A stretch of 32,000 bases of DNA from Candidatus Saccharimonadota bacterium (GTDB taxonomy: Bacteria; Patescibacteriota; Microgenomatia; UBA1406; GWC2-37-13). This document shows positions 1,607-27,637 of this stretch, piece after piece. A program made the translations under genes and the position numbers. The stretch lies in NCBI GenBank assembly GCA_016432445.1, contig CP066689.1, forward strand, positions 1,050,001 to 1,082,000. Reading direction: 5' to 3'. Within the stretch, counting starts at the first letter, position 1. Every line of letters starts with the position of its first letter. The notes below the pieces were generated by a model. It saw nothing but the letters and a program-made list of their open reading frames with translations. It searched no databases and was not told the origin of the DNA.

Positions 1607-2674
1607 TTAATACCAAAGCTGTATATAGCGGTTCACTACAACCTCTCCTTTATCTGTTTTGACGGTGACTTTCCAAGGAACTAATGTCCTTATAAAAGGC
1701 AGAGGAATAAATCCAGGTTTTTTAGGCACAGAGACTTTTTTGGAAAGATCGATCGCAAAACCATCCTTATCAACTACAATATCCTCCTTAGTGATTACTT
1801 TTTTTAATTTTGACTCTTCTTTGACATAACTTTTCCACCCTCCCATTACAAAATAAATATCCAAATCACCATTAATCACTCTGTTGGAATTATCAGTTTT
1901 GACTTCTTTCCCATTTTTTTCATAGACTTTGTACTCAAATCTTGAACCATTAACTTCTTCTGAAAGCTTTTCCACTCTTATTGCCAACTTGTCATTATCA
2001 TAAATCTCAAAAAAAGACTTATCCTTCATAGGTACTGTAAAATAGAGACTTCCGGCTGCTTTTAAATGCGAGCCTGAAGCTGAGACAGTGAAATCTTTTT
2101 CGTAAATTATTTCTTTAAACTGAAAAACCCGTGCATGTGGTAATGGCCAAGGAAGTGGAAAAGAAACGCTGCTCTTCCTTACCTCAACATCCACAAAAAG
2201 ATAGCTGAAAAGAAGAATGCTTCCTAAAAATAATAAAAGCCAATACCTTAATTTCAATATTCTAAAAGGCTTTAAAAAAAACTCAAACTTCCTTTTCTCA
2301 ATAAAAGGATTAACAGATTTTGGATTTAGACGATGGCGATAATACAGATATACAAAATAGTAATTAAAAACCAGTATTAAAGAATAAATAAAATCATTGG
2401 TTAACCTCTGCCAGTTAGTCTTAAAAATAACATTTACTAGCAGATTAATACTTACAAAAAATAATAAGAATAGATAAATTTTAAGATGCACGGCTGATTT
2501 TAAAAGCCTGAAAGGAAAAATTAAAACAAAAGAGAAGATAAACAAAGGCAAATAATCCACGATATCCTTTCTTCCTAAACTGGGAAAAAAGACTATCACA
2601 ACGGGCAGTGTCAGAAGAATGAGTAAGAAACGGACAATAAAAGCGACTGTTTTTAAAGCATTGATTTTAATCAT
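1607..2674 (-). CDS. multi-pass membrane protein with C-terminal beta-rich soluble domain, function unknown
   Basis: The N-terminal ~170 aa are strongly hydrophobic (several TM helices) and the C-terminal half is hydrophilic. Its ATG overlaps the leuS TGA in an ATGA junction at 2671-2674, suggesting co-translation with leuS. Confidence 0.5.
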   Translation of the reverse strand: MIKINALKTVAFIVRFLLILLTLPVVIVFFPSLGRKDIVDYLPLFIFSFVLIFPFRLLKSAVHLKIYLFLLFFVSINLLVNVIFKTNWQRLTNDFIYSLILVFNYYFVYLYYRHRLNPKSVNPFIEKRKFEFFLKPFRILKLRYWLLLFLGSILLFSYLFVDVEVRKSSVSFPLPWPLPHARVFQFKEIIYEKDFTVSASGSHLKAAGSLYFTVPMKDKSFFEIYDNDKLAIRVEKLSEEVNGSRFEYKVYEKNGKEVKTDNSNRVINGDLDIYFVMGGWKSYVKEESKLKKVITKEDIVVDKDGFAIDLSKKVSVPKKPGFIPLPFIRTLVPWKVTVKTDKGEVVVNRYIQLWY

Positions 2675-5262
2675 GTTACTATGAAATTTAGGATTTTGCC
2701 TTTTACGTAGATTGTTTTGTAGGATTTTCCTTCCACGAATTTTTTGACTTTATTATCTTCCAAGGCTTTTTTGACTACACTTTCTTCTTGTTCTTCACGG
2801 TTTATAACCACTGTGCCTCTTACCTTGCCGTTAACCTGAACCGGTATGGTTATCTCCTCTTCCTCAACCATCTTTTCAGCTTCAGGCCAAGGAGATAAGT
2901 GAATTGAAGACTTTTCCCCAAATATATCTCTCCAAATTTCCTCTGCTGTAAAAGGTGCAAACGGAGCCAATATCTTCAAAAACTTCTTGACCTCTTCTTG
3001 AGACATTCCTTCTGACTTTTCCCAGTCATTGATAAACTCCATCATTGAGGCAATAGCTGTATTAAACTTAATATTCAAGATATCGTTTGTTACCTTATGT
3101 ACTGTTTTGTTTAATTTTTGATTTAATTGTAGGGACAGGTCGCGACCTGTCCCTACCTTAGTTTGACACAAATTCCACACGCGGTTTAAAAACCGGTATC
3201 CCCCTTGTAAAGTTGAGGTCGACCAGGAAATCTCCTGACTAAACGGAGCCATAAACATTTCATAGATTCTTAAGGTGTCAGCCCCATACTCTTTCACTAC
3301 TTCATCGGGATTTATGACATTGCCAAGAGATTTACTCATCTTACGATGATCTTCAGCTAAAACCATACCGACATTTCTTAGGCGTAAAAAAGGTTCGCTG
3401 AAATCAACTAGCTTCAGATCATAAAGAGCTTTAACCCAGAAACGGGAGTATAGAAGGTGAAGAACAGCGTGTTCTGCTCCGCCGACATACCAATCCACCG
3501 GCTGCCACTTTTTCATTGACTCCTGACTCCAGGCTTCTTTATCATTATGAGGATCAGCAAATCTCAAAAAGTACCAGCAGGAACCGGCCCAGTTGGGCAT
3601 AGTATCCGTTTCCCGTTTACCTTCACCTCCGCAGTGAGGACAAGTGGTTTTAACCCAGTCTTTGACAGCAGACAAAGGCGACTCGCCGGTTTGAGATGGC
3701 TCGTAAGACTTAAGGTAAGGTAACTCTAACGGTAAACTTTTTTCATCAATTGGGAACCATCCATAAAGCGATTCTTGAACTTCTTTGTCTAGTTTTGATA
3801 CACTATGATCCCTCATTTGACATTTGACATTTGAAATTTGAAATTCTTCTGTGTCCCACCAAGAAATCTTCTTATCAGCACATTTTTGGCAATAAACCAT
3901 AGGGATTGGTTCGCCCCAATATCTTTGTCTTGAAAAAATCCAATCTCTTAAGTGATAACTAACGGTTCGTTGCCCCCATTTTTTTTCTTCCAGATAATCC
4001 ATGATCTTCTGTTTTGCTACCTGAATGTCTAGTCCATTTAAAAACTCGGAATTAATCATTCTACCAACCTCTTCTTGTACTTGCTTGCTTTCGGTTATTG
4101 CTGAAGTATCACCGTCTTTACCAACAACAACTCTAACTATTTCTAAACCAAATTCGCGGGCAAACTCGAAATCACGCAAATCATGTCCTGGTACTCCAAC
4201 TACTGCACCCGTTCCAAAATTGGAAAGAACAAAATCAGAGACCCAAATTGGCAAAAGTTTATTATTTAAGTTGTTGACAGCATAGTAGCCTGTAAAAACT
4301 CCCGTCTTTTTCTTTCCTTCAGCTATTCTTTCCAAATCCGTCTTAGAGACTGTTCTATCAACGTATTCTTTAATCTTAGTACTATACTCACGTGGAGTAT
4401 TTTCATCCTTTAATACCTTTTTAACAAACTCATGCTCTGGAGCTAAGACAACAAAAGTTGCTCCGAAATTAGTATCAGGTCTTGTCGTAAAACAGGTAAT
4501 TTCATCAAAGATCTTAGATCTTAGATCTTGGATCTTAGATTCAGGGCAAACTACTTTGTAGGTAATATTTATACCTTCTTTGCGGCCAATCCAGTTTTTT
4601 TGCATATCCAAAATTCCTTTTGGCCAATCTAAATCATCTAATCCTTCAAGTAAACGATCGGCATAAGAGGTGATTTTAAATATCCATTGAGGCAATTCTT
4701 TTTTTGTAATTGGACAACCGCACCTTTCATGGATGCCATTGGCTAAAACTTCCTCTTCGGCCAAGCCGGTTTTACATTTTTCGCAATAATATACTTCCGT
4801 ATTTTTTTTGTAAAGCAATCCTAGCTTGTAAAATTGAATAAATAACCATTGAGTCCATTTGTAGTAAGAAGGATCAGTGGTGGAAAACTCGCGGGACCAA
4901 TCAAAGGATAATCCAAGAGCCTTCATCTGTCGCTTAAAATTGGCAATATTGTCAGGCACCATATCCATAGGGTTTTTCTTGGCTTTAATGGCCGCGTTCT
5001 CTGCCGGCAGTCCAAAAGCATCCCAACCCATAGGATGAAGAACAGAATAACCTTTCATACGGTAGTAACGGGAAAGTATATCTGTAGCAGTGTAACCTCG
5101 AGGGTGACCAACATGAAGACCTGCACCTGAAGGGTAGGGAAACATATCTAATATATATGTTTTTTGTTTATTCTTGGATGGCTCCGCGGTGGCATAAGTA
5201 TTTTCTTTATCCCATACTTCAATCAGTTTGGGTTCAAACTGAGAAGGCTGATACTTTTTCAT
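2671..5262 (-). CDS. leuS: leucyl-tRNA synthetase
   Basis: Class I motifs are present: HVGHPRGY (HIGH) and KMSKSLGN (KMSKS). It also has TTRPDT at the editing-domain entry and a Cys-rich zinc motif. The start is set at MKKYQPSQFEP (ATG 5262). The 24 extra upstream codons in the ORF track are read from a 9-nt repeat array. Confidence 0.95.
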   Translation of the reverse strand: MKKYQPSQFEPKLIEVWDKENTYATAEPSKNKQKTYILDMFPYPSGAGLHVGHPRGYTATDILSRYYRMKGYSVLHPMGWDAFGLPAENAAIKAKKNPMDMVPDNIANFKRQMKALGLSFDWSREFSTTDPSYYKWTQWLFIQFYKLGLLYKKNTEVYYCEKCKTGLAEEEVLANGIHERCGCPITKKELPQWIFKITSYADRLLEGLDDLDWPKGILDMQKNWIGRKEGINITYKVVCPESKIQDLRSKIFDEITCFTTRPDTNFGATFVVLAPEHEFVKKVLKDENTPREYSTKIKEYVDRTVSKTDLERIAEGKKKTGVFTGYYAVNNLNNKLLPIWVSDFVLSNFGTGAVVGVPGHDLRDFEFAREFGLEIVRVVVGKDGDTSAITESKQVQEEVGRMINSEFLNGLDIQVAKQKIMDYLEEKKWGQRTVSYHLRDWIFSRQRYWGEPIPMVYCQKCADKKISWWDTEEFQISNVKCQMRDHSVSKLDKEVQESLYGWFPIDEKSLPLELPYLKSYEPSQTGESPLSAVKDWVKTTCPHCGGEGKRETDTMPNWAGSCWYFLRFADPHNDKEAWSQESMKKWQPVDWYVGGAEHAVLHLLYSRFWVKALYDLKLVDFSEPFLRLRNVGMVLAEDHRKMSKSLGNVINPDEVVKEYGADTLRIYEMFMAPFSQEISWSTSTLQGGYRFLNRVWNLCQTKVGTGRDLSLQLNQKLNKTVHKVTNDILNIKFNTAIASMMEFINDWEKSEGMSQEEVKKFLKILAPFAPFTAEEIWRDIFGEKSSIHLSPWPEAEKMVEEEEITIPVQVNGKVRGTVVINREEQEESVVKKALEDNKVKKFVEGKSYKTIYVKGKILNFIVT
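3129..3156. repeat. PAL28: perfect 28-nt palindrome GTAGGGACAGGTCGCGACCTGTCCCTAC, in frame in leuS
   Basis: Identical to the copies at 10851 and 27239. It is translated as VGTGRDLSL in the anticodon-binding region of LeuRS. Confidence 0.95.
3814..3846 (-). repeat. HEP-A heptamer array (AAATGTC/AAATTTC)n, in frame in leuS
   Basis: The plus strand reads CATTTGACATTTGACATTTGAAATTTGAAATTC. The sense strand encodes FQISNVKCQM. Confidence 0.9.
4508..4542 (-). repeat. HEP-C heptamer array (AAGATCT)n, in frame in leuS
   Basis: The plus strand reads AAGATCTTAGATCTTAGATCTTGGATCTTAGATTC. The sense strand encodes SKIQDLRSKI. Confidence 0.9.
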
Positions 5263-5269
5263 ATCTGAT

Positions 5270-5275
5270 ATTATA
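5270..5275 (-). promoter_or_regulatory. -10 box TATAAT, 7 nt upstream of the leuS ATG
   Basis: The minus strand reads TATAAT-ATCAGAT-ATG. No Shine-Dalgarno sequence is present. Confidence 0.4.
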
Positions 5276-5315
5276 TAACAATTATAATAATTATAAAGAT
5301 TATAACGGTTATATA
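5270..5315. repeat. NON-E 9-nt array (TTATAANNN)n upstream of leuS
   Basis: TTATA recurs at 9-nt spacing and includes the palindrome TATAACGGTTATA (5301-5313). The first unit doubles as the leuS -10 box. Confidence 0.75.
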
Positions 5316-5596
5316 TTTTCTCTTCTGTCTTCAAAGGAATTTCTTGGTTTAGGCGGTCTGGCTTCAGAAACGACTAACTTCCGGCCTTCATATTCTTGAC
5401 CGTTAAATTTATCAATAGCCGCTTTTGCTTCCTCCTCTGATGACATTTCAACGAATCCAAAACCTTTTGATCTACCACTGTCTCTATAGCGGATAACTGA
5501 TGCAGAAACAACATTACCAACCTGAGAAAAAAGATCTTTTAACTGATCATCATTAACCTCATATAAAAGATTACCAACATAAAGCTTAGCACTCAC
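5309..5596 (-). CDS. RRM-type RNA-binding protein
   Basis: RNP2 LYVGNL and RNP1 KGFGFVEM are present. It has a GTG start preceded by GGAGGTGG with a 7-nt spacer, the clearest Shine-Dalgarno in the window. Confidence 0.85.
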   Translation of the reverse strand: MSAKLYVGNLLYEVNDDQLKDLFSQVGNVVSASVIRYRDSGRSKGFGFVEMSSEEEAKAAIDKFNGQEYEGRKLVVSEARPPKPRNSFEDRRENI

Positions 5597-9185: not shown

Positions 9186-11150
9186 ATGAACTCGAAGATT
9201 AAAGACCTCTGCAAACTGCTTCGATATGATGTTATAACCTCAACCACTGCCGCCGGTTCTGGACACCCTACAACCTGTCTTTCCGCTATAGAACTCATGG
9301 GAACATTATTTTTTAAAGGCTTTTTCCATTTTGATCCTGACCATCATGAAAGTATTCTTAACGACCGTATTATTTTTTCTAAAGGCCATGCTGCTCCCCT
9401 ACTTTATGCGTTATACCATGCAGCTGGATTAATAAGCCAAGATGATATTTTAAGTTTGCGTAAATTTGACTCTGTTTTTGAAGGACATCCTACTCCGAGA
9501 TTTAAGTACGTTGATGTTTCCACTGGTTCTCTAGGTCAAGGATTGTCAATAGGCGTGGGAATGGCATTAGGAATAAAAACCAAAATCCAAATGTCAAATG
9601 TCAAAATTAAAAGAGAACCTAAGGTATGGGTATTGATAGGAGACTCAGAAATAGCTGAAGGACAGGTTTGGGAAGCTATGGAAATAGCCTCACATTACAA
9701 ACTTAACAATCTGGTTGCCATACTTGATGTTAACCGTTTAGGTCAAAGAGGAGAAACAATGCTTGGATGGGATCTTAAAACTTATGAAAAACGAGCTCAA
9801 GCTTTTGGCTGGGAAACAATTGTTATCAAAGACGGCCATGATATTGAGGAAATAAAAAACGCATATCATCATGTCGACGAACGCCCAACGACGAACGCAA
9901 AACCCACAATGATCATCGCAAAAACCATAAAAGGCAAAGGCGTTTCCTTTCTTGAAAACAAAGATAACTGGCACGGTAAACCAGTACCTAAGGATAGATT
10001 AGAGGAAGCTTTAAAAGAATTGAGTAAAGTTAACCTTAAGGTAAGAGGAACAGTAACCAAACCAAAATTAGTTAAGGGTTTAGAGTTAAGGGTTTTGGGT
10101 AAAACTCAAAACTCTCAACCCTCAACCATAAACTATAAACCTGGAGCAATGGTTGCCACCCGTGAAGCTTATGGCGATGCTCTTGTTACATTAGGAGAAA
10201 AAAATCCCAACTTAGTAGTACTTGACGCTGAAACCTCAAACTCAACCTACGCTGATAAATTTAAAAATAATTTTCCTGAAAGATACTTTGAGATGTATAT
10301 TGCCGAACAAAATATGATCTCAGTCGCTTTAGGATTTTCTAAATTAGGATTTATTCCTTTTATCTCCAGTTTTGCCGCTTTTTTAACCCGATCTTTTGAT
10401 CAAATACGTATGGCTCAATACTCAAACGGCAATGTAAAAATATGCGGATCACATGCTGGGGTATCAATTGGCTCAGATGGTCCTTCGCAAATGGCATTGG
10501 AAGATATATCAATGATGAGAAGCATACTAGAAAGCACTGTTTTTTACCCATCAGATGCTGTTTCCGCTTATAATCTGGTTTATCAAAGTATGAGTACATC
10601 TTCTCTTACTTACATCCGCACCACTCGGGAAAAAACGCCCATTTTATATAGCTCTCAAGAAAAGTTTACTGTTGGTGGATCAAAAATTTTAAAACAAAGC
10701 AAAAATGATGATGCGGTTATTTTTACTGCCGGAATCACAGTCCATGAATCTCTTAAAGCTTACGAGGAACTAAAAAAAGAAGGAATTAATGTTTGCGTTG
10801 TTGATCTTTACTCCATCAAACCAATTGATTCGTTAACCATCCACAATCTAGTAGGGACAGGTCGCGACCTGTCCCTACCTAAAATCAATAACGTCATTGT
10901 TGTTGAGGATCATTACCCATATGGTGGCCTCGGCGAAGCCGTAATGTCGCAGATCAAAGATCTAACATCGAAGATCTCCTTCACTCACCTGGCTGTCAAT
11001 AAAATCCCCCGTTCAGGCACACCCGAAGAACTTTTAGCCTACGAAAAAATTAATGCCGCTGCTATCGTTAAAATATGTAAGGGCGTATTGCAATACGCCC
11101 CTACCTCACTCAAAAAAACCGTAACGGCAAAGGAACAACTTACCGCTTAA
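9186..11150 (+). CDS. tkt: transketolase, N- and C-terminal halves fused
   Basis: The N half has GSGHPTTCLS, GDSEIAEGQVWEA and WHGKP. The C half has ATREAYGDAL, EQNMISVA and HAGVSIGSDGPSQ. It contains six repeat-derived in-frame segments (see repeats). Its 3' end overlaps the convergent ATPase by 11 nt. Confidence 0.9.
   Translation: MNSKIKDLCKLLRYDVITSTTAAGSGHPTTCLSAIELMGTLFFKGFFHFDPDHHESILNDRIIFSKGHAAPLLYALYHAAGLISQDDILSLRKFDSVFEGHPTPRFKYVDVSTGSLGQGLSIGVGMALGIKTKIQMSNVKIKREPKVWVLIGDSEIAEGQVWEAMEIASHYKLNNLVAILDVNRLGQRGETMLGWDLKTYEKRAQAFGWETIVIKDGHDIEEIKNAYHHVDERPTTNAKPTMIIAKTIKGKGVSFLENKDNWHGKPVPKDRLEEALKELSKVNLKVRGTVTKPKLVKGLELRVLGKTQNSQPSTINYKPGAMVATREAYGDALVTLGEKNPNLVVLDAETSNSTYADKFKNNFPERYFEMYIAEQNMISVALGFSKLGFIPFISSFAAFLTRSFDQIRMAQYSNGNVKICGSHAGVSIGSDGPSQMALEDISMMRSILESTVFYPSDAVSAYNLVYQSMSTSSLTYIRTTREKTPILYSSQEKFTVGGSKILKQSKNDDAVIFTAGITVHESLKAYEELKKEGINVCVVDLYSIKPIDSLTIHNLVGTGRDLSLPKINNVIVVEDHYPYGGLGEAVMSQIKDLTSKISFTHLAVNKIPRSGTPEELLAYEKINAAAIVKICKGVLQYAPTSLKKTVTAKEQLTA
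9581..9608 (+). repeat. HEP-A heptamer array, in frame in tkt
   Basis: CAAAATCCAAATGTCAAATGTCAAAATT encodes KIQMSNVKI. Confidence 0.9.
9875..9903 (+). repeat. HEP-F heptamer array (CGACGAA/CGCNNAA)n, in frame in tkt
   Basis: The units CGACGAA CGCCCAA CGACGAA CGCAAAA encode DERPTTNAK. Confidence 0.8.
10071..10140 (+). repeat. HEP-H inverted heptamer arrays (GTTNNGG)x4 / (NNNNAAC)x6, encoding the linker between the transketolase halves
   Basis: The units are GTTAAGG GTTTAGA GTTAAGG GTTTTGG GTAAAAC TCAAAAC TCTCAAC CCTCAAC CATAAAC TATAAAC. They are translated as VKGLELRVLGKTQNSQPSTINY. Confidence 0.8.
10851..10878. repeat. PAL28 perfect copy, in frame in tkt
   Basis: The same 28-mer, translated as VGTGRDLSL. 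Confidence 0.95.
10950..10978 (+). repeat. HEP-C degenerate array, in frame in tkt
   Basis: CAGATCAAAGATCTAACATCGAAGATCTC encodes QIKDLTSKI, to be compared with KIQDLRSKI in LeuRS. Confidence 0.7.
11077..11104. repeat. PAL28 variant GTAAGGGCGTATTGCAATACGCCCCTAC at the 3' end of tkt
   Basis: Same length and same GTA.GG/CC.TAC ends as the perfect copies. The core differs but is perfectly self-complementary (GGGCGTATTG/CAATACGCCC). Translated as KGVLQYAP. Confidence 0.8.
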
Positions 11151-13650
11151 TGATCTTTTTTATCAAACCTATTCCGGGTAGAACTAACATTGTCACTATA
11201 AGGAGTTCTAAAAATAATGGTGTAGTTATCATCTCAACTTTAAAAAGTTTAGATAAACTTGGTATATTCACAATCATAAACTGATTAACAATAGGAATTG
11301 CAAATGCTATCAAAAATGCTTTTGAAAGAAAGCTTTTAACATGTTTATTAATAGAACGGTGAGATAACCAAAGATCAACAAAAACAAAAGACTGAATCAT
11401 GGCCAGCACTGAAAAAGCAGCAGTTTTACCAACGTCTTCTCCGTTTGATTTAAATAAAAAATAAGAGACCATCACCAAAGATGTTGCTAAAAAAGCAACT
11501 AGAATAATATATCGTTTATCAAAATTATTAAAAAGACTCAATTTTTTTTCCGGAGGTTTATTCATTAAATGATCTTCACGGGGTGAAAATGCCAAAGCTA
11601 AAGCAGGGATTCCATCACTGATGAAATTTATATAAAGTATTTGGACAGCGCTAAAGAAAGCAGGCACACCCAAGATAAGTCCAGTCATAAGCGCTAAGGC
11701 TTCTGTAGCATTGGTTGATAATAAATATTTAATAGAGTTTTTAAGATTCTTTACAATATTCCTGCCTTCCTCAACCGCACTAATAATGGTTGCAAAATTA
11801 TCATCCATAATCACAATATCAGAAGTCTCACGAGCTACATCAGTACCTACCTTCCCCATAGATATTCCAACATCCGCCTGCTTTAATGCAATCGCATCAT
11901 TAACACCGTCTCCTGTTACAGCCACTATCTCTCCTAATTTTTGATACAAAGATACAATTCGGCTTTTATGAAGAGGTGTTGTGCGGGCAAATATTTTTAC
12001 TTTAGGCAGTTTTTCTAATAATTCCTCGTCCGTATAACTCTCTATTTGCTTTCCTGTTAAAATCAGATCGCCTTCTTTAATAATGTTCACGGCTACTCCA
12101 ACTGCCTCAGCTGTTTTTTCATTATCGCCGGTTATAATCACAACTTTAATACCGGCGCGATAGGCTTTTTCCACTGCTCCTTTTACCTCAGGTCTTGGAG
12201 GATCGTGGATGGCGACCATACCGATGAATATTTGATCTTCGATCTTAGATCTTAGATCTTGGTATGAAAACGCGATAACCCTGTAGCCTTTTTTCGTCCA
12301 ATGATCCAGTGTTTTCTCGACTTCATGTCTTCTTTCTTGGGTAAACTCCACCTCTTTTCCCGCGATCAAAATTTTTCCGCATTTCTCCAAAATAGCCTCC
12401 GGAGCTCCTTTAATAAACATTATTTCTTTATTATCTTTTTTTACCACCACACTCATTGTCTTGGTTAAAATATCAAATGAACCTTCTTTTATAAACTGCC
12501 ATTCTGTTCTTAATTCTTCAGGATCTATACCAAAATGCTCTCTGGCAAAAAGCAGTAAAGAACCTTCTGTTGGATCACCCAAAACTTCCCAGGAATTATG
12601 ATCATGAACATAAACTAAAGAAGCCGTGGAACATAAAATTCCATTAGTGATTAATTTTTTAAGCGAAGGATTATCATGCGGAATTGACTGATGATCTTCA
12701 AATATCTTTCCGTCGGTTAAAATTTCCTTTATTCTCATATCGTTACTAGTTAAGGTACCGGTTTTATCTGTCGCAATAAGAGTTATATTGCCTATAGCTT
12801 CAATTGCCTCAAGTCTTCTCACGACTGCCTTTTTCTTGGCCATCTCTTTTACTCCTAAAGCTAAAGTAATTGTCGTTACTGCCGGCAACCCTTCAGGTAC
12901 AATAGCTACTGCTAAAGATATCGCCAGTAAAAATGCAGGAAAGTAACCGGAGCCGTTAATAAACGATAATCCTAGAACTGCTATAGAAAAAATAATGCCG
13001 ACAACTCCGATTATTTTAAGCAAACTATTGAGCTTGCGCTGAAGAGGAGTAGAAGTTTTTTCAATTTTGGAAAGACTGTTGGCTATTTGTCCAAATCTGG
13101 TTTTCATTCCAGTTTGAGTTATCTGCGCTTGCGCCCGGCCTTTAAATATAACTGTCCCCATAAATATCTCATCACCTGCATATTTATATACAGGTATAGA
13201 CTCACCGGTTAAAGAAGCTTCATTAACCTCAAGATTAACTGCCTTAAAAACTTTAGCATCAGCCGGAATCTTCATACCTTCCTCAATGAGAATGATGTCT
13301 TTAGGCACTAAAAAACTGCTGTCAATCTCCATTTCTTTCCCATCTCTAATTACTCTTGATACTGTAACTGCCAATTTCTTTAAGGCACTTATTGCTTCCT
13401 CTGCTTTTCTTTCTTGATAAATCTTAAAGACAGCATTTAAAAAAATAATAGCTAAGATAAGTGAACCGTCAATGATTTCACTAATGAAAAATGATATGCC
13501 GGCTGCTCCAAGTAAAAGAAGAGTCAAAACATCCTTAAACTGTCTTAAAAAAATTAAGATCAGACTGTCTTTACGCGTCTCTTCAATAACATTAAGCCCA
13601 TGCGTCCTTAAAAGACGCTCCACTTCTGGTGATGAAAGACCCTTTAACAT
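11140..13650 (-). CDS. cation-transporting P-type ATPase (P2-type, Ca2+/Mg2+-like)
   Basis: Motifs present: DKTGTLT phosphorylation site, PEGLPA in TM4, TGDN, GDGVNDAIALK, and TGES in the actuator domain. I prefer the ATG at 13650 (MLKGLSSPE). The ORF-track start at 13659 is a TTG inside a repeat. Confidence 0.9.
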   Translation of the reverse strand: MLKGLSSPEVERLLRTHGLNVIEETRKDSLILIFLRQFKDVLTLLLLGAAGISFFISEIIDGSLILAIIFLNAVFKIYQERKAEEAISALKKLAVTVSRVIRDGKEMEIDSSFLVPKDIILIEEGMKIPADAKVFKAVNLEVNEASLTGESIPVYKYAGDEIFMGTVIFKGRAQAQITQTGMKTRFGQIANSLSKIEKTSTPLQRKLNSLLKIIGVVGIIFSIAVLGLSFINGSGYFPAFLLAISLAVAIVPEGLPAVTTITLALGVKEMAKKKAVVRRLEAIEAIGNITLIATDKTGTLTSNDMRIKEILTDGKIFEDHQSIPHDNPSLKKLITNGILCSTASLVYVHDHNSWEVLGDPTEGSLLLFAREHFGIDPEELRTEWQFIKEGSFDILTKTMSVVVKKDNKEIMFIKGAPEAILEKCGKILIAGKEVEFTQERRHEVEKTLDHWTKKGYRVIAFSYQDLRSKIEDQIFIGMVAIHDPPRPEVKGAVEKAYRAGIKVVIITGDNEKTAEAVGVAVNIIKEGDLILTGKQIESYTDEELLEKLPKVKIFARTTPLHKSRIVSLYQKLGEIVAVTGDGVNDAIALKQADVGISMGKVGTDVARETSDIVIMDDNFATIISAVEEGRNIVKNLKNSIKYLLSTNATEALALMTGLILGVPAFFSAVQILYINFISDGIPALALAFSPREDHLMNKPPEKKLSLFNNFDKRYIILVAFLATSLVMVSYFLFKSNGEDVGKTAAFSVLAMIQSFVFVDLWLSHRSINKHVKSFLSKAFLIAFAIPIVNQFMIVNIPSLSKLFKVEMITTPLFLELLIVTMLVLPGIGLIKKIIKR
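12233..12262 (-). repeat. HEP-C heptamer array, in frame in the P-type ATPase
   Basis: The plus strand reads TGATCTTCGATCTTAGATCTTAGATCTTGG. The sense strand encodes QDLRSKIEDQ. Confidence 0.9.
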
Positions 13651-13750
13651 AAAATTCAAATATCAAATGTCAAAAAAATAATATTCGTCATTTGATATTT
13701 GGAATTTGGATTTGATTTGACATTTGAAATTTGGATTTTGGATTTAATTG
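13651..13750. repeat. HEP-A inverted heptamer arrays between the ATPase start and the HEPN-like ORF end; contains a 50-nt unit at 13664-13713
   Basis: CAAATGTCAAAAAAATAATATTCGTCATTTGATATTTGGAATTTGGATTT matches 14272-14321 at 48/50 positions. Further ATTTGNN units follow. Confidence 0.9.
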
Positions 13751-14236: not shown

Positions 14237-14265
14237 ATTATATACGAAAATTAAATCCAAATGTC
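14237..14265 (-). promoter_or_regulatory. promoter TTGACA-17-TATATAAT for the HEPN-like ORF, with the -35 supplied by a HEP-A heptamer
   Basis: The minus strand reads TTGACA-TTTGGATTTAATTTTCG-TATATAAT-GTTTCA-ATG. Confidence 0.5.
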
Positions 14266-14328
14266 AAAATCCAAATGTCAAAAAAATAATATTTGTCATT
14301 TGATATTTGAAATTTGGATTTTGGATTT
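14253..14328. repeat. HEP-A inverted heptamer arrays between the HEPN-like ORF start and the rplA stop; contains a 50-nt unit at 14272-14321
   Basis: This is a direct repeat of 13664-13713 with 2 mismatches. Its minus strand supplies the TTGACA of the HEPN-like promoter. Confidence 0.9.
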
Positions 14329-14332
14329 TACT

Positions 14333-15118
14333 TTATATTTGTTCAATATTTAACCTTAGAGAGGGGCTCATGGTTGTTTTGACGAAAGCTCCAAGAATAT
14401 GATTTCTGCCTACTGACTTTAAGAAAGCGCTAATATTTTTATCTAGCTCTTTTTCCTCAGATGATATCTTACCTATCATCTGGTGAATTAAAGGAAATTT
14501 AGGTTCTGTTTTCCAACGGGTTACACCTTTGGAAAATTTTTTCACCAATTCTTCAGGATTAGGTGAGATTGTGCCGGCTTTAGGATTGGGCATTAAGCCT
14601 TTCGGACCTAATACTTTAGCAAATTTGGCGAGCTTTGGCATGAAAGATGGATGGGTCACTAAAACATCAAAATTCATATTTCCTTTTTCCAGTTCTGACA
14701 AAAGATCATCGCTTACAACAGCTACTCTAACGCTTTTTCCGATTGAAAAAGGAAGCTCTGCCTCACCTCTTAAACCGGTTTTATCAACGTTTAAATGTAC
14801 CTCAACGGATTCATCAAACTTTGCATATTTGATTTTCTTCAGATTAGATATCGCTTCAGGAATAGAATATGTTTTTTTTGTATCAATGGCTTTTTTGGCC
14901 GTTGAGTATTTCTTTCCCCGCTGACGGACTTGAGTTTTAGCTTGCCTTTTTCCCGTTTTTTTTACTTTAACCTCGGTAGGTTTTGTCTCTTCCTTCTCTT
15001 GGCTAACTACAACTTTAGTGGAAGTAGCTTTTTTTTGTACAGATTTTTCTTTCTGTTCTTTTTTTTGTTTTTTTTCTTCTTCTTCTAAACCTAAAGTTCT
15101 AGTTCTGATTTTTCCCAT
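14333..15118 (-). CDS. rplA: 50S ribosomal protein L1 with ~60-aa Lys/Glu-rich N-terminal extension
   Basis: The L1 core is recognisable: KKYSTAKKAID...YSIPEAI, GKSVRVAVV, NFDVLVTHP, LGPKGLMPNPKAGT. I chose the ATG at 15118 because the sequence upstream of it is the same 69-nt block that precedes the rplK ATG. Confidence 0.9.
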   Translation of the reverse strand: MGKIRTRTLGLEEEEKKQKKEQKEKSVQKKATSTKVVVSQEKEETKPTEVKVKKTGKRQAKTQVRQRGKKYSTAKKAIDTKKTYSIPEAISNLKKIKYAKFDESVEVHLNVDKTGLRGEAELPFSIGKSVRVAVVSDDLLSELEKGNMNFDVLVTHPSFMPKLAKFAKVLGPKGLMPNPKAGTISPNPEELVKKFSKGVTRWKTEPKFPLIHQMIGKISSEEKELDKNISAFLKSVGRNHILGAFVKTTMSPSLRLNIEQI

Positions 15119-16533: not shown

Positions 16534-16550
16534 AAAAAAACAAGAAATTA

Positions 16551-16615
16551 ATTGATTCACGATTTATGATTAATGATTCATGAATCGTGAATCTTGAATC
16601 ATTAATCAATGATCA
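16551..16615. repeat. HEP-D related array (ATGATTC/GTGAATC/TTGAATC units) in the secE / 16635 divergent spacer
   Basis: ATTGATTCACGATTTATGATTAATGATTCATGAATCGTGAATCTTGAATCATTAATCAATGATC is built from the same unit vocabulary as HEP-D. Confidence 0.75.
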
Positions 16616-16634: not shown

Positions 16635-17258
16635 ATGTATACAGAAATACTGCATTCAATCCTTATCACCGCTGCGCTGGCTCTCTCCTTTCTGATAAGC
16701 AAAACCTCTTTGGCAGTCTATGATTTACAAATAAGCGCCTTCCTTTTTATTGTCTTTTTTATAGGAAAAAAGTGGCTGGATAAAGGTCAGCATAAACTAA
16801 TAGAGTCGCTTGTTTTTGCTTTTATTATCAACATGATTGTCAGCACAACAGGAGCGGCTCAATCGCCTTATTTTTTCCTTTATTATTTTCTTTTGTTCTC
16901 ATTAAGTCTTTTTTTGGAACCCGTTATTGCCATTACAGCCACTATTGCTGTAATTTTCTTCTCTCTATTGTCTTTATCTCAGATACAAACTCTCGACCAG
17001 GTCTTGCCAATTTTATCGCTTGCCTTAATTACGCCATTTGCTCTTTTTTTGGGAGAAGAACATATCAAAAACCAAATTTCAAATGTCAAATTACAAAATT
17101 TGGAAAAAGACAGTTACTTTTTTCTTTCTTTAGTATTAAAAAATCACATCAATAATATTAACCAAGCGGCAGAAAATTTTTTAGGCGACCGCGAGCTTGA
17201 AGAAATCAAAAAAAATGTCAAAAGAATCAAGAAATTGATTGAAGAATATGAGAAATAG
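16635..17258 (+). CDS. polytopic membrane protein, function unknown
   Basis: About five hydrophobic helices followed by a charged C-terminal coil. A heptamer insertion encodes ISNVKLQ at the TM/coil boundary. TATACT lies 7 nt upstream of the ATG. Confidence 0.5.
   Translation: MYTEILHSILITAALALSFLISKTSLAVYDLQISAFLFIVFFIGKKWLDKGQHKLIESLVFAFIINMIVSTTGAAQSPYFFLYYFLLFSLSLFLEPVIAITATIAVIFFSLLSLSQIQTLDQVLPILSLALITPFALFLGEEHIKNQISNVKLQNLEKDSYFFLSLVLKNHINNINQAAENFLGDRELEEIKKNVKRIKKLIEEYEK
17072..17103 (+). repeat. HEP-A array, in frame in the membrane ORF 16635-17258
   Basis: CCAAATTTCAAATGTCAAATTACAAAATTTGG encodes QISNVKLQNL. Confidence 0.85.
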
Positions 17259-17266
17259 ATATAAAC

Positions 17267-17360
17267 TCAAATGTCAAATGTCAAATGTCAAATGTCAAAA
17301 CTTTAGATTTCTTTTAGCATTGGGAATACTTTTGATATTTGGAATTTGGATTTTGAAATT
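17267..17360. repeat. HEP-A hairpin-type element: (AAATGTC)x4, spacer, (ATTTGRA)n
   Basis: There are four perfect AAATGTC units at 17269-17296. The opposing arm TTTGATATTTGGAATTTGGATTTTGAAATT lies at 17331-17360. The whole element is translated as the signal peptide of the downstream ORF. Confidence 0.9.
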
Positions 17361-18033
17361 AAGCAAAGTGCATGCCGCCAATATGGAGTCGAGCCGATTT
17401 CGGATTCAAGGAGGAAATATCAACATTGGCGCCACTTCACCCTCATCTGCAAGCTACAATCTCTCAATGACTTTAGGTCAGACTGCAGCTGGTCAGTTTA
17501 GCCGCGACGGCTATATTGTTAAAGCCGGATTTCAGTACATTTACTCTATTATCCCTTTTAGATTTTCTATCTCGGATATCTCCATTGACCTAGGAACACT
17601 TGTCCCCAACACCCCTTCAACCGCAGCCACTACTCTTACAGTCTCATTTGGCAGTGCCGGCCAGTATCAAGTTACGGCAGTAGAACTGGGCACCTTAAAA
17701 ACCCTAAGCGATAATTCAATTGATGATACCGTTTGTAATGGAGGAGGATCAGCTTGCAGTGAATCAAGCTCCAATCTCTGGACATCAAGCTCGGCTTATG
17801 GTTTTGGCTATAATATGAGCGGTAATGATGTGCCGTCAGACTTTCTCAGCTCTGACTATTATCGCCCTTTTCCTGACAGTACTGTTGCGGAAAGTCCTGC
17901 TGTGGTCATGTCAAATGCTGATGTCGGAAGTAACCGCCAGTCAACCGTCACCTTTAAAACTAATATCTCGACCATACAGCCTGCCGGATCTTATCAGACT
18001 ATTATCAATTTTGTAGCCACACCATCATTTTAA
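17278..18033 (+). CDS. secreted beta-rich surface protein, paralog of the C-terminal domain of 22518-23987
   Basis: It has a signal-peptide-like N-terminus (MSNVKCQNFRFLLALGILLIFGIWILKLSKVHA). It shares ...C.G....C.ES.S..WT..S.YG.GY... and a terminal QPAGSY....F.AT.SF with the 489-aa paralog. The start is uncertain: 17239 TTG, 17248 ATG or 17278 ATG. Confidence 0.55.
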   Translation: MSNVKCQNFRFLLALGILLIFGIWILKLSKVHAANMESSRFRIQGGNINIGATSPSSASYNLSMTLGQTAAGQFSRDGYIVKAGFQYIYSIIPFRFSISDISIDLGTLVPNTPSTAATTLTVSFGSAGQYQVTAVELGTLKTLSDNSIDDTVCNGGGSACSESSSNLWTSSSAYGFGYNMSGNDVPSDFLSSDYYRPFPDSTVAESPAVVMSNADVGSNRQSTVTFKTNISTIQPAGSYQTIINFVATPSF

Positions 18034-18035
18034 TA

Positions 18036-19028
18036 ATGAAAAATATAATAATTATAATTGTTATAACGGTTATAGCGGTTATACAAGCGACTGAAGCGAG
18101 GGCACAACAGGTTTCTCTTTCTATCTCTCCTCCGCTTTTAGAGGTAGCTATAAAACCCGGAAAATCAATACTTATTGCTTATACATTAAGAAACTATGGC
18201 GATCCAACTATTCTTAAAGCCCGTATCCTTCCTTTTGAACCTTTAGGCAGTACCGGCAATATAAAGATAAAAAATGAACTTGAAGGACCAATTCAGTTTT
18301 TTTTAGATAATGCCGATTTTAATCTGGGTCAGCCGTTTTTTTTAAAAAGCGCTGATTCTCAACAGCTCCTTTTGAGAATAAAAGCAGCCGAAGGTACGCC
18401 TGAAGGAGATTACTATTACACACTTCTTAATGAGACTGAACCTTCAGCCGGACTGTCTGGAGTGAGCTTATCTCAGGCTAAAGCAACACTAGGCTCTAAT
18501 ATTTTAATTACCGTTACTGAATCAGGAAAAATTGACATTCAGGGTAAAATTTCCCTGTTTGATGTTATCTCGCGATACTCTTTTTCCTTTTTTGGACGTC
18601 AGCTAAAGTTATTTGACAGCTCCGATCTTATCCCGGTCACTATTCAAGTTGAAAACCGGGGTAAAAACTTTATTAAACCTGAAGGACAAATTGAGTTAAG
18701 AGGCAACTTCGGAGAAAAAGCCGAGTACTCTATTATTCCAAAAAATATTTTAAGCGAGTCTCAAAGGCTTCTTTCAGCTACGCCCTCAGCAGCTTTAGAC
18801 TGCGAAGATAAAAAAAATAATAAGCTTTGCAAAAGTCCTGTCTCTTTACTTATCTCCGGTTTTTTCATTGGCAGTTATAAACTTTCAACGACTGTAAGTT
18901 TTGGTGATGGTTCACCTAATCTTTATGCCTCAGCCTCATTTATTGCTCTACCTTTAAAACTCATTCTCGGAGTTTTGACCACTTTTATTCTCGGCTTTTT
19001 TCTCATTATTAAAATGAGAAAATCTTAA
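18036..19028 (+). CDS. signal-anchored Ig-like/chaperone-like protein (DUF916-like), C-terminal TM anchor
   Basis: It has a signal peptide ending IQATEARAQ, a beta-sandwich-like pattern (ISPPLLEVAIKPGKS..., EGDYYYTLL) and a C-terminal TM plus KMRKS. It is a paralog of 23994-25001. The DUF916 resemblance is from memory of the family pattern. Confidence 0.5.
   Translation: MKNIIIIIVITVIAVIQATEARAQQVSLSISPPLLEVAIKPGKSILIAYTLRNYGDPTILKARILPFEPLGSTGNIKIKNELEGPIQFFLDNADFNLGQPFFLKSADSQQLLLRIKAAEGTPEGDYYYTLLNETEPSAGLSGVSLSQAKATLGSNILITVTESGKIDIQGKISLFDVISRYSFSFFGRQLKLFDSSDLIPVTIQVENRGKNFIKPEGQIELRGNFGEKAEYSIIPKNILSESQRLLSATPSAALDCEDKKNNKLCKSPVSLLISGFFIGSYKLSTTVSFGDGSPNLYASASFIALPLKLILGVLTTFILGFFLIIKMRKS
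18047..18084 (+). repeat. NON-E 9-nt array encoding a signal-peptide core
   Basis: TTATAATTG TTATAACGG TTATAGCGG TTATACA is translated as IIIVITVIAVIQ. Confidence 0.8.
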
Positions 19029-20585: not shown

Positions 20586-21521
20586 ATGGATAAACCTCCG
20601 GTTACTAAAAGAATTGTCCTTATAACCTTAGTCCTATCCCTTATTGTAATAACCGTCATCTTCATTTCAAATTTTTTTGACACGCGGACAAAAATTGTCT
20701 TTTGTGATGTGGGACAAGGAGACGGAGCCTATATCAGAGTAAAAAATAAGATTGATATTGTCATAGACGCCGGACCCGGCAAAAAGGTACTTAACTGCTT
20801 AGGCAAGCACATGCCTTTTTTTGACAAAGAGATTGAGATTGCCATAATAACCCATCCTCAAACTGACCATTATGGAGGTTTTTTGCCAATGCTTGAAAGA
20901 TACAAAATTAATACGTTCGTAATAGACTCATTTGATACTCCTAACTCGTCTTTCAAGGAATTATTGCAAAAAATAAAAGAAAAAAAATCTAGGATATCTG
21001 CTTTTTTTCAAAATGATGAGATCAACTTGGGTGAATCTAGGATAATTTTCCATTGGCCGCCGGCTACGAACGACGAACGACGAACGCAGAACGATCCCAA
21101 TAACTTGTCTTTAATCTTCACTTATGAAGAAAATGCCTTGCCTGCCGGTCTTCGACTCCGAGGTCGCTCAGACTCGAGGAGCAGGCAGGGTTTTAGAGTG
21201 TTGTTTACAGGAGATGCAACACCAAAGGTATTAAATAAACTGTTGAAACAACAAAACTTAAAATCTAATATTTTAAAAATTCCCCATCATGGCTCAAAGA
21301 ACGGGCTGACTAAAGAATTTTTGCAGTTAGCAGACCCCGAGCTGTCAGTGATAAGTGTTGGCAGAAAAAATGCTTATGGTCACCCTTCAAAAAACGTTAT
21401 AGACATGTTTAAAGCCCTGAAGAAAAAATATTTAAGAACAGATCAAGAAGGAGACATCGTTTTTAAAATCCAAAGTACAAATGTCAAATCATTTAGATTT
21501 TGGATTTCATTTGAAATTTGA
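20586..21521 (+). CDS. comEC: ComEC metallo-beta-lactamase domain, separate ORF with its own TM
   Basis: FCDVGQGDGAYI, ITHPQTDHYGG (HxHxDH-type), LFTGDA, KIPHHGSKNG and GHPS are present. It starts 4 nt after the stop of the preceding ORF. It contains two in-frame repeat insertions and a repeat-encoded tail. Confidence 0.8.
   Translation: MDKPPVTKRIVLITLVLSLIVITVIFISNFFDTRTKIVFCDVGQGDGAYIRVKNKIDIVIDAGPGKKVLNCLGKHMPFFDKEIEIAIITHPQTDHYGGFLPMLERYKINTFVIDSFDTPNSSFKELLQKIKEKKSRISAFFQNDEINLGESRIIFHWPPATNDERRTQNDPNNLSLIFTYEENALPAGLRLRGRSDSRSRQGFRVLFTGDATPKVLNKLLKQQNLKSNILKIPHHGSKNGLTKEFLQLADPELSVISVGRKNAYGHPSKNVIDMFKALKKKYLRTDQEGDIVFKIQSTNVKSFRFWISFEI
21064..21094 (+). repeat. HEP-F heptamer array, in frame in the comEC MBL ORF
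   Basis: The units CTACGAA CGACGAA CGACGAA CGCAGAA CGA encode ATNDERRTQND. Confidence 0.8.
21136..21190. repeat. GC-rich hairpin element with ~10-bp terminal inverted repeats, in frame in the comEC MBL ORF
   Basis: CCTTGCCTGC...GCAGGCAGGG flank an internal GACTCCGAGG/GACTCGAGGA duplication. It is translated as ALPAGLRLRGRSDSRSRQG and sits just before the conserved LFTGDA strand. Confidence 0.75.
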
Positions 21522-21538
21522 AATTTGACATTTGGATT
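21465..21538. repeat. HEP-A hairpin at the convergent junction comEC-MBL / PaaX-like
   Basis: CAAATGTCAAAT (21478-21489) pairs perfectly with ATTTGACATTTG (21523-21534). It supplies the last codons of the MBL ORF (QSTNVKSFRFWISFEI). Confidence 0.85.
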
Positions 21539-22356
21539 TAGGAGAGAAGGATACTCTTTATCTCTCTAAATATATTGTACGCTTCAAGGCCTATCCATTT
21601 TTCGCCCACCAGATCTATTGGCAGACCGGGATCCTCACGTAAGATAATCACGTACTCGCCAATAACTTTCTTAAATTTGTCTGTTTTACTGCCTTCCTTT
21701 GCCAACGTATCATGCCATTTCTTAAAAAGATCTCTGTATCTCTTATCCAGTTGTGACAATCCCCAAACCTTCTCAATCAAAATTGCACGATCGCCAAAAA
21801 CATATTCGGCTTCAAAAGCCTGTACGTATTTTTCTTCCTCTTTTTGAGATACTAGCTCTTTAAGTGCGTCAATGATCGGATGAGGCGTTAGCCAAAAAGA
21901 TCTGTGCCAAGGACCCAAGCCCCAACCTGAGACTTCGCGTCGAAGTTTATCTCGTAGTTCTCTCTTTTTTTCCGGAATTTCATAAGACAAAATACGCCAT
22001 TTTCCATCCCACTTTTCTTTTAAAAATCTCACGAACGGAAACTCAAGAGCAAGTTTAATAAACCCCTTCTCAGTCAAACGGTATTCAGCTGCATTGTCAT
22101 CCCGACCGGAGTGGAGGCTATAGTCCTGAGCTTGCGAAGGAGATCCCTCGGCTTCACTCGGGATGACATTGGAGGAATAGTTTTTCTCAATCAATCCTTC
22201 TTTTAATAATGCTGAAAGAGTACCGCGGGTTTTTTGGTTTAAAGATAAATCAAAAGCAAGCTGTATGGGCTCTTGCAATTTGACATATGGAAAATTAACG
22301 TCTGATAGTAAAAATAGAGCAAGTAAAATTTTCGTCCGTCTTTCTTTGATTATCAT
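21538..22356 (-). CDS. PaaX-like transcriptional regulator
   Basis: An N-terminal winged-helix-like segment (TRGTLSALLKEGLIE) plus WDGKWRILSYEIPEKKRELRDKLRREVSGWGLGPWHRSFWLTPHP, which is typical of the PaaX C-terminal region. A 72-nt GC-rich element is inserted in frame between the two parts. Confidence 0.6.
   Translation of the reverse strand: MIIKERRTKILLALFLLSDVNFPYVKLQEPIQLAFDLSLNQKTRGTLSALLKEGLIEKNYSSNVIPSEAEGSPSQAQDYSLHSGRDDNAAEYRLTEKGFIKLALEFPFVRFLKEKWDGKWRILSYEIPEKKRELRDKLRREVSGWGLGPWHRSFWLTPHPIIDALKELVSQKEEEKYVQAFEAEYVFGDRAILIEKVWGLSQLDKRYRDLFKKWHDTLAKEGSKTDKFKKVIGEYVIILREDPGLPIDLVGEKWIGLEAYNIFREIKSILLS
22096..22167. repeat. GC-rich 72-nt element with perfect 10-bp terminal inverted repeats GTCATCCCGA/TCGGGATGAC, in frame in the PaaX-like gene
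   Basis: The length is exactly 24 codons, translated as VIPSEAEGSPSQAQDYSLHSGRDD. The GC content contrasts sharply with the host gene. Confidence 0.85.
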
Positions 22357-25923: not shown

Positions 25924-25973
25924 ATGTTTGAATTTTTTTTGAAATTTGACATTTGGCATTTGAGCTTTGAATC
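25881..25973. repeat. HEP-A hairpin at the convergent junction 24994-25923 / 26020-26433
   Basis: CCAAATGTCAAAT (25895-25907) pairs perfectly with ATTTGACATTTGG (25944-25956), a 13-bp stem. The left arm encodes the tail KSKCQMTNIK. Confidence 0.85.
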
Positions 25974-26433: not shown

Positions 26434-26690
26434 AATATTAAATATAACATATATTAAAAAAAACAAGGCCAATTGTCATTTAACGCTTCGGATTGATCTG
26501 ATCTGGAAACTTTGTGAAGTCGTCCCGACGTGGCGTCTTTACAGATGATTAAAACAAATTTTACATTTATCAAAATAAACATACGTCTGCTAAAAATTAA
26601 AAAAAAAGCTATAGCTTATTCCATAGACTTGAAACTTAATCAAGTTAACCTGGTGATAAATATTACTTGCAGACGTTAATTTTAAAATAA

Positions 26691-26796
26691 GAATTTCAAA
26701 TGTCAAATTTCAAATTCCAAATCAAATCCAAAATCCAAATAACTAAATTACTTAACCTTAGTTGATATTTGAAATTTGAGCTTTGACATTTGATTT
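26691..26796. repeat. HEP-A inverted arrays, longest intergenic copy
   Basis: The left arm has about eight CAAATNN units (TTTCAAATGTCAAATTTCAAATTCCAAATCAAATCCAAAATCCAAAT). The right arm reads GATATTTGAAATTTGAGCTTTGACATTTGA. Confidence 0.9.
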
Positions 26797-26848
26797 TTAT
26801 CTAAAATTTCTTGTGGCTAACCATGGAGGAAATCATACAAACGTGTAT

Positions 26849-27091: not shown

Positions 27092-27637
27092 ATGCAACTA
27101 CAGTATAATCAGTATAATTTTGAATCTTCTTTTAAAAACTATTTACTTGCGGAAAAAGTAAAACCTGTTACTTTAAAAAATTATCTGTCCGATTTAAGAC
27201 ATTTTTTGGGGTGGTTAACAATCCCATCTCACATCAATGTAGGGACAGGTCGCGACCTGTCCCTACCAGATGAAACGTCATTCATCACCCAAAATCTGAC
27301 CTTAGAAACCCTTGAAAATTACAAGCAGTATCTTATATCAAACAACCTGCCTTTACTAACTGTAAACCGCCGCCTCTCTACTCTTCGTAAGTTTTGCACC
27401 TTTTGTATTTCTCAAGGATGGATGAAGGAGAACCCAGCGAAAAAAATTTCAAATGTCAAATTTCAAATGTCAAGTGCAGGGGTCGGGCGTGACCGACCCG
27501 AGACAATGGATGAGGCAAATATCGGATATGTATTAAAAAAATATAAAACATTCATTGAAAAAGAAGGCCTTTCCAACAATCAAATCGATAAAAATATTAC
27601 AGACGTGAAGGATTTTTTACAAATTATAAATTCATAA
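27092..27637 (+). CDS. tyrosine-recombinase N-terminal SAM-like (core-binding) domain protein, no catalytic domain
   Basis: FKNYLLAEKVKPVTLKNYLSDLRHFLGWL and NYKQYLISNNLPLLTVNRRLSTLRKFCTFCISQGWMKENPA fit the Phage_int_SAM pattern. There are no R..HxxR..Y catalytic residues. Three different repeat families are inserted in frame. Confidence 0.5.
   Translation: MQLQYNQYNFESSFKNYLLAEKVKPVTLKNYLSDLRHFLGWLTIPSHINVGTGRDLSLPDETSFITQNLTLETLENYKQYLISNNLPLLTVNRRLSTLRKFCTFCISQGWMKENPAKKISNVKFQMSSAGVGRDRPETMDEANIGYVLKKYKTFIEKEGLSNNQIDKNITDVKDFLQIINS
27239..27266. repeat. PAL28 perfect copy, in frame in the integrase-N-domain ORF
   Basis: The same 28-mer, translated as VGTGRDLSL. Confidence 0.95.
27445..27473 (+). 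repeat. HEP-A array, in frame in the integrase-N-domain ORF
   Basis: AAATTTCAAATGTCAAATTTCAAATGTCAA encodes ISNVKFQMS. Confidence 0.9.
27480..27499. repeat. GC hairpin GGGTCGG-GCGTGA-CCGACCC, in frame in the integrase-N-domain ORF
   Basis: A 7-bp perfect stem translated as GVGRDRP, in the same ORF as the VGTGRDLSL-encoding PAL28 copy. A single copy was seen. Confidence 0.5.

Follow-up and report, generated by a model that had tools for sequence, protein, structure and literature searches.

The genome of this Candidatus Roizmanbacteria member (candidate phyla radiation, CPR; Microgenomates) is rich in short heptanucleotide tandem repeats, and in the stretch considered here arrays of the unit AAGATCT run in frame through conserved protein-coding genes. 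This stretch, referred to as the window, comprises 32,000 nucleotides (nt) of contig CP066689.1 (assembly GCA_016432445.1, positions 1,050,001 to 1,082,000 of the forward strand; G+C of 36-37%), and all coordinates are positions within it. The arrays occur in the genes for leucyl-tRNA synthetase (LeuRS) and a cation-translocating P-type ATPase, with a degenerate third copy in the gene for transketolase. The best explanation, held as a whole at a probability of about 0.72, is that arrays of three to five units originate through a process acting at the DNA level and are tolerated in frame, free of stop codons, within loops of the encoded proteins.

The LeuRS gene (2671..5262, minus strand; 863 amino acids, identical to P0001) lies within an open reading frame (ORF) spanning 2671..5334, and its array occupies 4504..4542 of the minus strand. 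It contains about five units, encodes E-SKIQDLRSKI-FD and reads gaa TCT AAG ATC cAA GAT CTA AGA TCT AAG ATC ttt gat on the coding strand, with a longest perfect heptamer stretch of 21 nt; Tandem Repeats Finder (TRF) reports period 7, 4.6 copies and 92% matches at 4509-4540. In the frame set from the ORF start at 5334, the in-phase junction codon at 4528..4530 (minus strand) is CAA, where a perfect unit would give TAA. The ATPase gene (11140..13650, minus strand; 836 amino acids, identical to P0121; ORF 11140..13659) carries a four-unit array (AAGATCT AAGATCT AAGATCG AAGATCA) at 12233..12262 of the same strand, which encodes QDLRSKIEDQ and reads tac cAA GAT CTA AGA TCT AAG ATC gAA GAT CAA ata (TRF at 12234-12260: period 7, 3.9 copies, 95% matches). 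Here two codons are in phase: CAA at 12259..12261 (minus strand), and GAA at 12238..12240 (minus strand), which lies within the array and is followed by one further unit. The transketolase gene (9186..11150, plus strand; 654 amino acids, identical to P0241) contains a degenerate AAGATCT-like array (CAGATCA AAGATCT AACATCG AAGATCT) at 10950..10978 of the plus strand, which encodes QIKDLTSKIS, reads cag ATC aAA GAT CTA AcA TCg AAG ATC Tcc and has AAA as its in-phase codon (10956..10958, plus strand). All three proteins match, at 100% identity, entries annotated from a Candidatus Roizmanbacteria metagenome-assembled genome.

These coordinates and codon readings had been given in an original prediction made from the sequence alone, and re-reading the sequence confirms them in all three genes. 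The proposal of three coding arrays proved sound for LeuRS and the ATPase, where the arrays are real; the transketolase copy is weak and degenerate, with two perfect units and two units bearing two mismatches each. An 'AC-CAA-GA unit' that had been placed inside the ATPase array is in fact its 5' boundary. Units in the other two phases, described as canonical throughout, are so in LeuRS, but the last ATPase unit is AAGATCA and the transketolase unit AACATCG holds two further changes. At least three head-to-tail 7-nt copies of high identity are present above chance, as the definition of a simple sequence repeat (SSR) array asks, with the transketolase copy marginal. A two-unit pattern allowing up to two mismatches gives 12 matches against 0.52 expected, a count reached by 0 of 100 shuffles.

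The LeuRS and ATPase arrays share an identical stretch of 22 nt, CCAAGATCTAAGATCTAAGATC, which includes the in-phase C. The peptide QDLRSKI is thus encoded by identical DNA (21-22 nt) in two unrelated genes, which argues for an origin at the DNA rather than the peptide level; it also means that the two C bases need not be independent events. Neither the window nor an extra 4 kb of flank contains an intergenic AAGATCT array, so that the canonical T is deduced here from coding copies alone, and the extra 4 kb, reached through the neighbouring gene, holds no further AAGATC arrays. Rfam gave no match at gathering score anywhere in the window. The octamer palindrome AAGATCTT, considered as a HIP1-like element, is present in about four isolated copies where roughly one is expected. 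Contamination by Illumina adapters (…GATCT) was rejected, the arrays being tandem, in frame and found in independent assemblies. Tandem duplication of a 21-nt segment was likewise rejected as an origin, given that successive in-phase junctions of the ATPase array differ (C, then G).

All three host ORFs are genuine, intact, conserved genes: each array has Pfam domains to either side, orthologue alignments span both array flanks, and the HIGH and KMSKS motifs of LeuRS are intact. On the basis of this gene integrity the arrays are judged to be translated, as had been predicted. In an alignment of 24 LeuRS sequences, the window protein has 14 residues where its closest orthologues (70-71% identity) have 3; this point is also where other orthologues hold inserts of unrelated sequence. 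By codon alignment the window gains +11 codons, a difference matched by an 11-residue gap in LeuRS of T. thermophilus (1h3n) directly before the TTRPDT motif of the editing domain. In an AlphaFold2 model, residues 239-252 form a coil between strands 228-238 and 253-259, with predicted local distance difference test (pLDDT) scores <50 at residues 242-247. The array-coded peptide corresponds to residues 241-252 and is predicted from the DNA to appear in the protein as ...CPESKIQDLRSKIFDEITC....

The ATPase reads SY-QDLRSKIEDQ-IFIG in the window as against SY-DN-VFLG in its closest orthologue (68%), an insertion of +8 codons in a loop that precedes the DPPR motif and varies strongly among members of the family. 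The LeuRS (+11 codons) and ATPase (+8 codons) arrays are missing from close orthologues, have a length divisible by three, and are lineage-specific in-frame insertions into hypervariable loops. Five independent contigs from Logan assemblies of this population all carry the ATPase array in identical form.

The transketolase copy is different. The window protein reads SQIKDLTSKIS where the closest orthologue (70%; P0242) has SSIQHPTSKIN, of equal length. The DNA of a sister species at this site (L123 4700-4760, sample SRR29054603) reads GCATCCA GCATCCA ACATCCA AAATCAA, and is therefore also heptamer-periodic, though with a different unit, with C at all junctions; the middle unit of the window's array, AACATCG, resembles this sister type. 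The copy is not a new insertion but an old array site whose unit varies from one species to the other, and turnover of units within this coding array would seem to be concerted.

The missing stop codons follow from the geometry of the repeat. Each unit of a perfect array contains one TAA (AAGATCT|AA), and a heptamer array cycles through all three frames every 21 nt, so every third junction has to coincide with an array end or bear C, G or A. No substitution is required for a three-unit array of 21 nt that lies in the right phase. Since an intact ORF cannot hold an in-frame TAA, the position of the substitution provides no independent statistical signal. The stop-free junction is a survivorship pattern, obligatory in any intact ORF and expected rather than surprising. 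This constraint leaves its footprint as a non-T base where the junction is in phase, and selection keeps the translated arrays stop-free, but the base is not evidence for any particular order of events.

Similar arrays are found elsewhere in public sequence data, and all counts from these scans are among the matches listed. A scan of GTDB genomes with AAGATCNAAGATCNAAGATC, which did not return the source genome among those matches, yielded arrays from many phyla, most of them of the A, C or G type. Stop-free arrays of AAGATCA, AAGATCC and AAGATCG lie in frame in the genes for PBP2, DNA ligase, alanine racemase, GatB, NusG and RecJ of Levy-, Davies- and Saccharibacteria, and in many genes of Acidobacteria. 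For the junctions themselves, a metagenome scan with a T-specific 20-mer was combined with the T-type arrays of the genome scan to give at least 122 distinct arrays, a small sample of mixed taxa selected by a search pattern with two T junctions. Arrays crossed by no open frame of at least 60 codons were classed as non-coding (n = 102), and those in a sense ORF of at least 150 codons as coding (n = 15, including the window's two). Twelve of the 13 coding ORFs from outside the window carry Pfam domains and are real genes; the hosts are KsgA, UvrB, a DNA polymerase III subunit, two glycosyltransferases, trigger factor, a NiFe hydrogenase, UvrD, a class I aminoacyl-tRNA synthetase, a TrxR-like enzyme, Pth and a NUDIX protein. 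All of these coding arrays read [Q/E/K]DLRSKI, and the 12 further metagenome genes confirmed by Pfam show the junction pattern non-T, T, T, non-T.

At the junction after the third unit, non-coding arrays that continue have T in 50 cases, A in 2 and C in 3 (n = 55), compared with T in 1, G in 3 and A in 4 of the coding arrays that continue (n = 8). The comparison of T between coding and intergenic copies that had been proposed with the original prediction thus came out in the direction foreseen on public contigs (50/55 vs 1/8; Fisher p = 1e-5): non-coding arrays are mostly T, and the sole T in a coding array reads TAC, with no in-frame TAA. The contrast is nevertheless logically forced, because 'coding' by definition excludes an in-frame TAA. 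At the next, out-of-phase junction, coding arrays have T in 6/8 (p = 0.04). Many coding arrays simply end at an in-phase junction, either the downstream (7/15) or the upstream one (11/15).

Under the explanation favoured here, a DNA-level process would make or copy short heptamer arrays genome-wide, with replication slippage, template switching and copying from other arrays as candidate processes. Arrays within genes would be translated as a cyclic heptapeptide, (Q/E/K)-D-L-R-S-K-I, in surface loops that tolerate variation in length. The arrays observed within genes add a length divisible by three, lie in permissive loops and bring no stop into the host frame. The in-phase T may have been replaced, may never have been present, or may be excluded by ongoing homogenization, and the data are compatible with each. 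Several points weigh against this account. The generating process is putative, and translation is deduced from gene integrity. One slippage step of 7 nt would throw an essential gene out of frame, leaving a viable one-step origin of 24 or 33 nt unexplained, and no intergenic AAGATCT array that could have served as donor exists in the window or its 4 kb flank. Finally, arrays continue past the critical junction about as often in coding (8/15) as in non-coding DNA (55/102), where a pure filter at birth acting on a pool with ~91% T (9% non-T) predicts only ~11% continuing. This equality suggests, within a small sample of mixed taxa, that in-situ change by substitution or homogenization is favoured.

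The alternative with most in its favour, though a doubtful one, is that perfect (AAGATCT)n arrays were inserted or expanded so as to create an in-frame TAA, and that each T was later rescued by an independent substitution to C, G or A. This resembles the history originally proposed, in which three independent copies each lost a stop under selection that followed insertion. It would account for the differing in-phase bases, which are C and G within the window and A, G and C in genes elsewhere, for the near-perfection of the arrays at other positions (an uninterrupted 21 nt in LeuRS), and, among the matches listed, for non-coding arrays being 91% T at that junction and for coding arrays continuing beyond it more often than a pure birth filter predicts. 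Loss of a stop presupposes an ancestor with T, which is an assumption of this reading. LeuRS is essential, and an allele with TAA should be lethal rather than persist until a rescuing mutation, which makes selection after insertion implausible in that gene. The claim of three independent losses is also weakened, and in part contradicted, by the sequences themselves: LeuRS and the ATPase have the same C within their identical 22 nt, and the transketolase copy is no insertion, its sister species having CAG, which is not TAA-like, at the codon in question. For the arrays that end at an in-phase junction no substitution is needed at all.

An unlikely variant of the history has no stop at any stage: the coding arrays would derive from stop-free AAGATC[A/C/G] arrays, with T arising later at the two harmless junctions. 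The change involved is synonymous in one case (TCA>TCT) and replaces Gln by Leu in the other (CAA>CTA). Arrays of the AAGATCA/C/G type are common in frame in CPR housekeeping genes and A is the commonest in-phase base of public coding arrays (both among the matches listed), the final ATPase unit is AAGATCA, and the transketolase sister segment has C at every junction. Two parallel changes to T would nonetheless be needed per array, and LeuRS has three T junctions and one C without any A-type unit. Arrays in the public sample were chosen for having two T junctions, and so cannot discriminate between these models.

It is very unlikely that the arrays are contingency loci, in which changes in unit number switch genes by frameshift (phase variation). 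Non-triplet repeats within genes are the classic substrate of such switching (in H. influenzae and others), and a Logan contig (9 samples) that ends within the LeuRS array at 4512 hints at heterogeneity. Against this, the arrays have only 3-5 units, where a typical contingency locus has >6 and lies in a dispensable gene, and they sit in single-copy housekeeping genes that are essential (LeuRS, UvrB, Pth and others) and whose OFF state would be lethal or costly; the ATPase array, moreover, does not vary among its five contigs. Membership of the contingency-locus class was rejected on these grounds. Chance resemblance, an artefact of assembly or selection converging on a DLRSKI peptide has next to no standing and is effectively refuted for LeuRS and the ATPase by the shuffles, by identical DNA in independent assemblies and by nucleotide identity across synonymous choices in unrelated genes, even if the transketolase copy is weak and its SKI is conserved in orthologues with different DNA.

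The favoured explanation, a DNA-level origin followed by tolerance in loops, also draws support from relatives of this organism. Exact 7-residue periodic peptides were sought in the 120 closest orthologues each of LeuRS, ATPase and transketolase from Microgenomates (P0001-P0360), and were found in 15/120, 11/120 and 21/120 sequences, respectively, compared with 1.1, 1.75 and 0.8 after shuffling, an enrichment of 6-26 times. For periods of 5, 6, 8 and 9, counts mostly equal or approach those of the shuffles, with a smaller excess in transketolase for period 6 (5 sequences) and period 9 (8 sequences). The loops in which the periodic peptides gather are those that hold the window's arrays: in LeuRS at about residue 230-250 (NIKYQISNIKYQI in six orthologues), in the ATPase at about residue 476 (IENSKLKIENS) and in transketolase at about residue 133 and at residues 590-628. 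LeuRS length among the orthologues ranges from 808 to 1034 amino acids. Judged from these protein sequences, the presence of translated heptamer arrays at recurrent hot-spots is thus a clade-wide feature.

A broader and more tentative possibility is that in Microgenomates and other CPR, and perhaps more widely, an active genome-wide process keeps writing and homogenizing heptamer arrays in permissive loops of essential genes, such that parts of housekeeping proteins are repeat-derived sequence turned over between species and constrained only by frame and stops. The transketolase site provides an example of such turnover, with AGATCTA-type units in one species versus GCATCCA-type units in its sister at identical length. 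If true, this would amount to a mode of protein-loop evolution not described before, which might rely on an enzyme of replication or repair specific to the lineage.

Other heptamers in the window also enter genes. CAAATGT-type units lie in frame in LeuRS (3814-3845, FQISNVKCQM) and transketolase (9575-9616, KIQMSNVKIK), as well as in ORFs 27092..27637 (27444-27473) and 17239..18033 (17267-17299). These in-gene arms are single, always in the stop-free orientation, and encode variants of Q-M-S-N-V-K-C/F. Intergenic spacers consist largely of CAAATGT- or AAATCCA-type units as inverted arms that fold into hairpins (13650-13750, 14245-14330, 16550-16610, 21490-21540, 25870-25970 and 26685-26800); the minus strand of 14240-14335 folds at -22.1 kcal/mol (z = -4.06), and these hairpins look like terminators.

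A second repeat family in the same genes is a perfect 28-nt palindrome, GTAGGGACAGGTCGCGACCTGTCCCTAC, found at 3129-3156 (LeuRS), 10851-10878 (transketolase) and 27239-27266 (an integrase-like ORF). It occupies the same frame in all three ORFs, where it encodes VGTGRDLSL. Compared with its orthologues, transketolase carries it as an insertion of 8 codons, and the C-terminal tail of transketolase holds a related variant at 11077-11104. Contigs from Logan assemblies of this population terminate exactly at palindrome elements, and within the LeuRS gene the assemblies break both at the palindrome and at the array. Contig ends at k=31 fall at 3156, 5303, 9909-9911, 11080 and 14282, most of them at a repeat. 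Contig L118 starts at 4512, inside the LeuRS array, a break seen in 9 samples that implies a second sequence with that 30-mer, which could be a variant in another strain or a further copy.

A 9-nt periodic repeat (TATAAnnnT/ATAACnGTT) is present at 5266-5322, 18027-18107 and 23994-24083. The first of these falls just within the LeuRS ORF at its 5' end and is upstream of the annotated start (5262). The others mark the 5' ends of ORFs 18036.. and 23994.., which then share a ACAAGCGACTGAAGCGA stretch. These may be paralogous N-terminal (signal or transmembrane) segments.

Repeats of comparable form are known from other prokaryotes. Heptanucleotide SSRs are over-represented in prokaryotic genomes, with polymerase slippage proposed as their source (Mrazek, Guo and Shah 2007, in the part relayed by PMC4692102 and PMC4679880). 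The window's arrays resemble these in their 7-nt unit, their short head-to-tail form, their dispersal through the genome and the frame and stop constraint on non-triplet units within genes. They differ from SSRs which, in the same relayed account, are mainly intergenic, by lying in frame in essential CPR genes and recurring at the same loops of orthologues. Closer in several ways are the TAACTGA direct repeats of Beggiatoaceae and cyanobacteria, present in 2-6 copies, which are contained in or overlap ~25 ORFs, obey a stop-codon logic of orientation and yield the 7-residue peptide repeat LSVISYQ; their insertions are suggested to survive mainly at tolerated positions (MacGregor 2015; PMC4679880). 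Both are few-copy heptamers constrained by stop codons and translated as a 7-residue repeat. Forward TAACTGA, however, has stops in all three frames, leaving only the reverse translatable, as opposed to one stop per unit in either orientation for AAGATCT, and most of its arrays lie immediately upstream of start codons or at the ends of proteins, in contrast to the internal LeuRS and ATPase arrays. The cyanobacterial short tandemly repeated repetitive (STRR) and G-rich repeats (Calothrix; GGGAATC in Nostoc and Xanthomonas) are likewise tandem heptamer families with an intragenic minority, amounting to 7-11% in Xanthomonas and about a third in Nostoc (Rehm 2015; PMC4692102). Unlike AAGATCT, they are G-rich, quadruplex-forming and under-represented in coding DNA, and were described without analysis of frame-specific substitutions (PMC4692102). 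Literature searches on CPR, Roizmanbacteria or Patescibacteria turned up no relevant paper on heptamer or tandem repeats.

The Rickettsia palindromic elements (RPE), which Ogata et al. are said to have described in 2000, are reportedly palindromes of 100-150 bp that resemble MITEs, transposable elements of the miniature inverted-repeat type, and lie in frame in protein-coding genes. They share with the window's arrays the presence of selfish or neutral repeat DNA in frame in essential genes, where it is translated as extra surface segments with function kept. The arrays differ in being tandem heptamers, and the 28-nt palindrome GTAGGGACAGGTCGCGACCTGTCCCTAC is the closer RPE analogue. Assignment of the arrays to the RPE/MITE class was rejected, each being a direct tandem array of 28-35 nt without flanking inverted arms.

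The missing in-phase TAA is a textbook illustration of purifying selection acting on a non-triplet repeat and introduces no new principle. Its setting is a small, streamlined CPR genome which still tolerates repeat DNA in LeuRS, transketolase and a P-type ATPase, within a clade whose orthologues hold different heptamer arrays at the same loops. The main value of the arrays is as an entry to repeat-derived loops in essential CPR proteins across the clade. If the pattern is general, it would explain part of the length heterogeneity of CPR proteins, would warn annotators and phylogeneticists that such segments are not homologous residues, and would provide natural markers of permissive insertion sites in essential enzymes.

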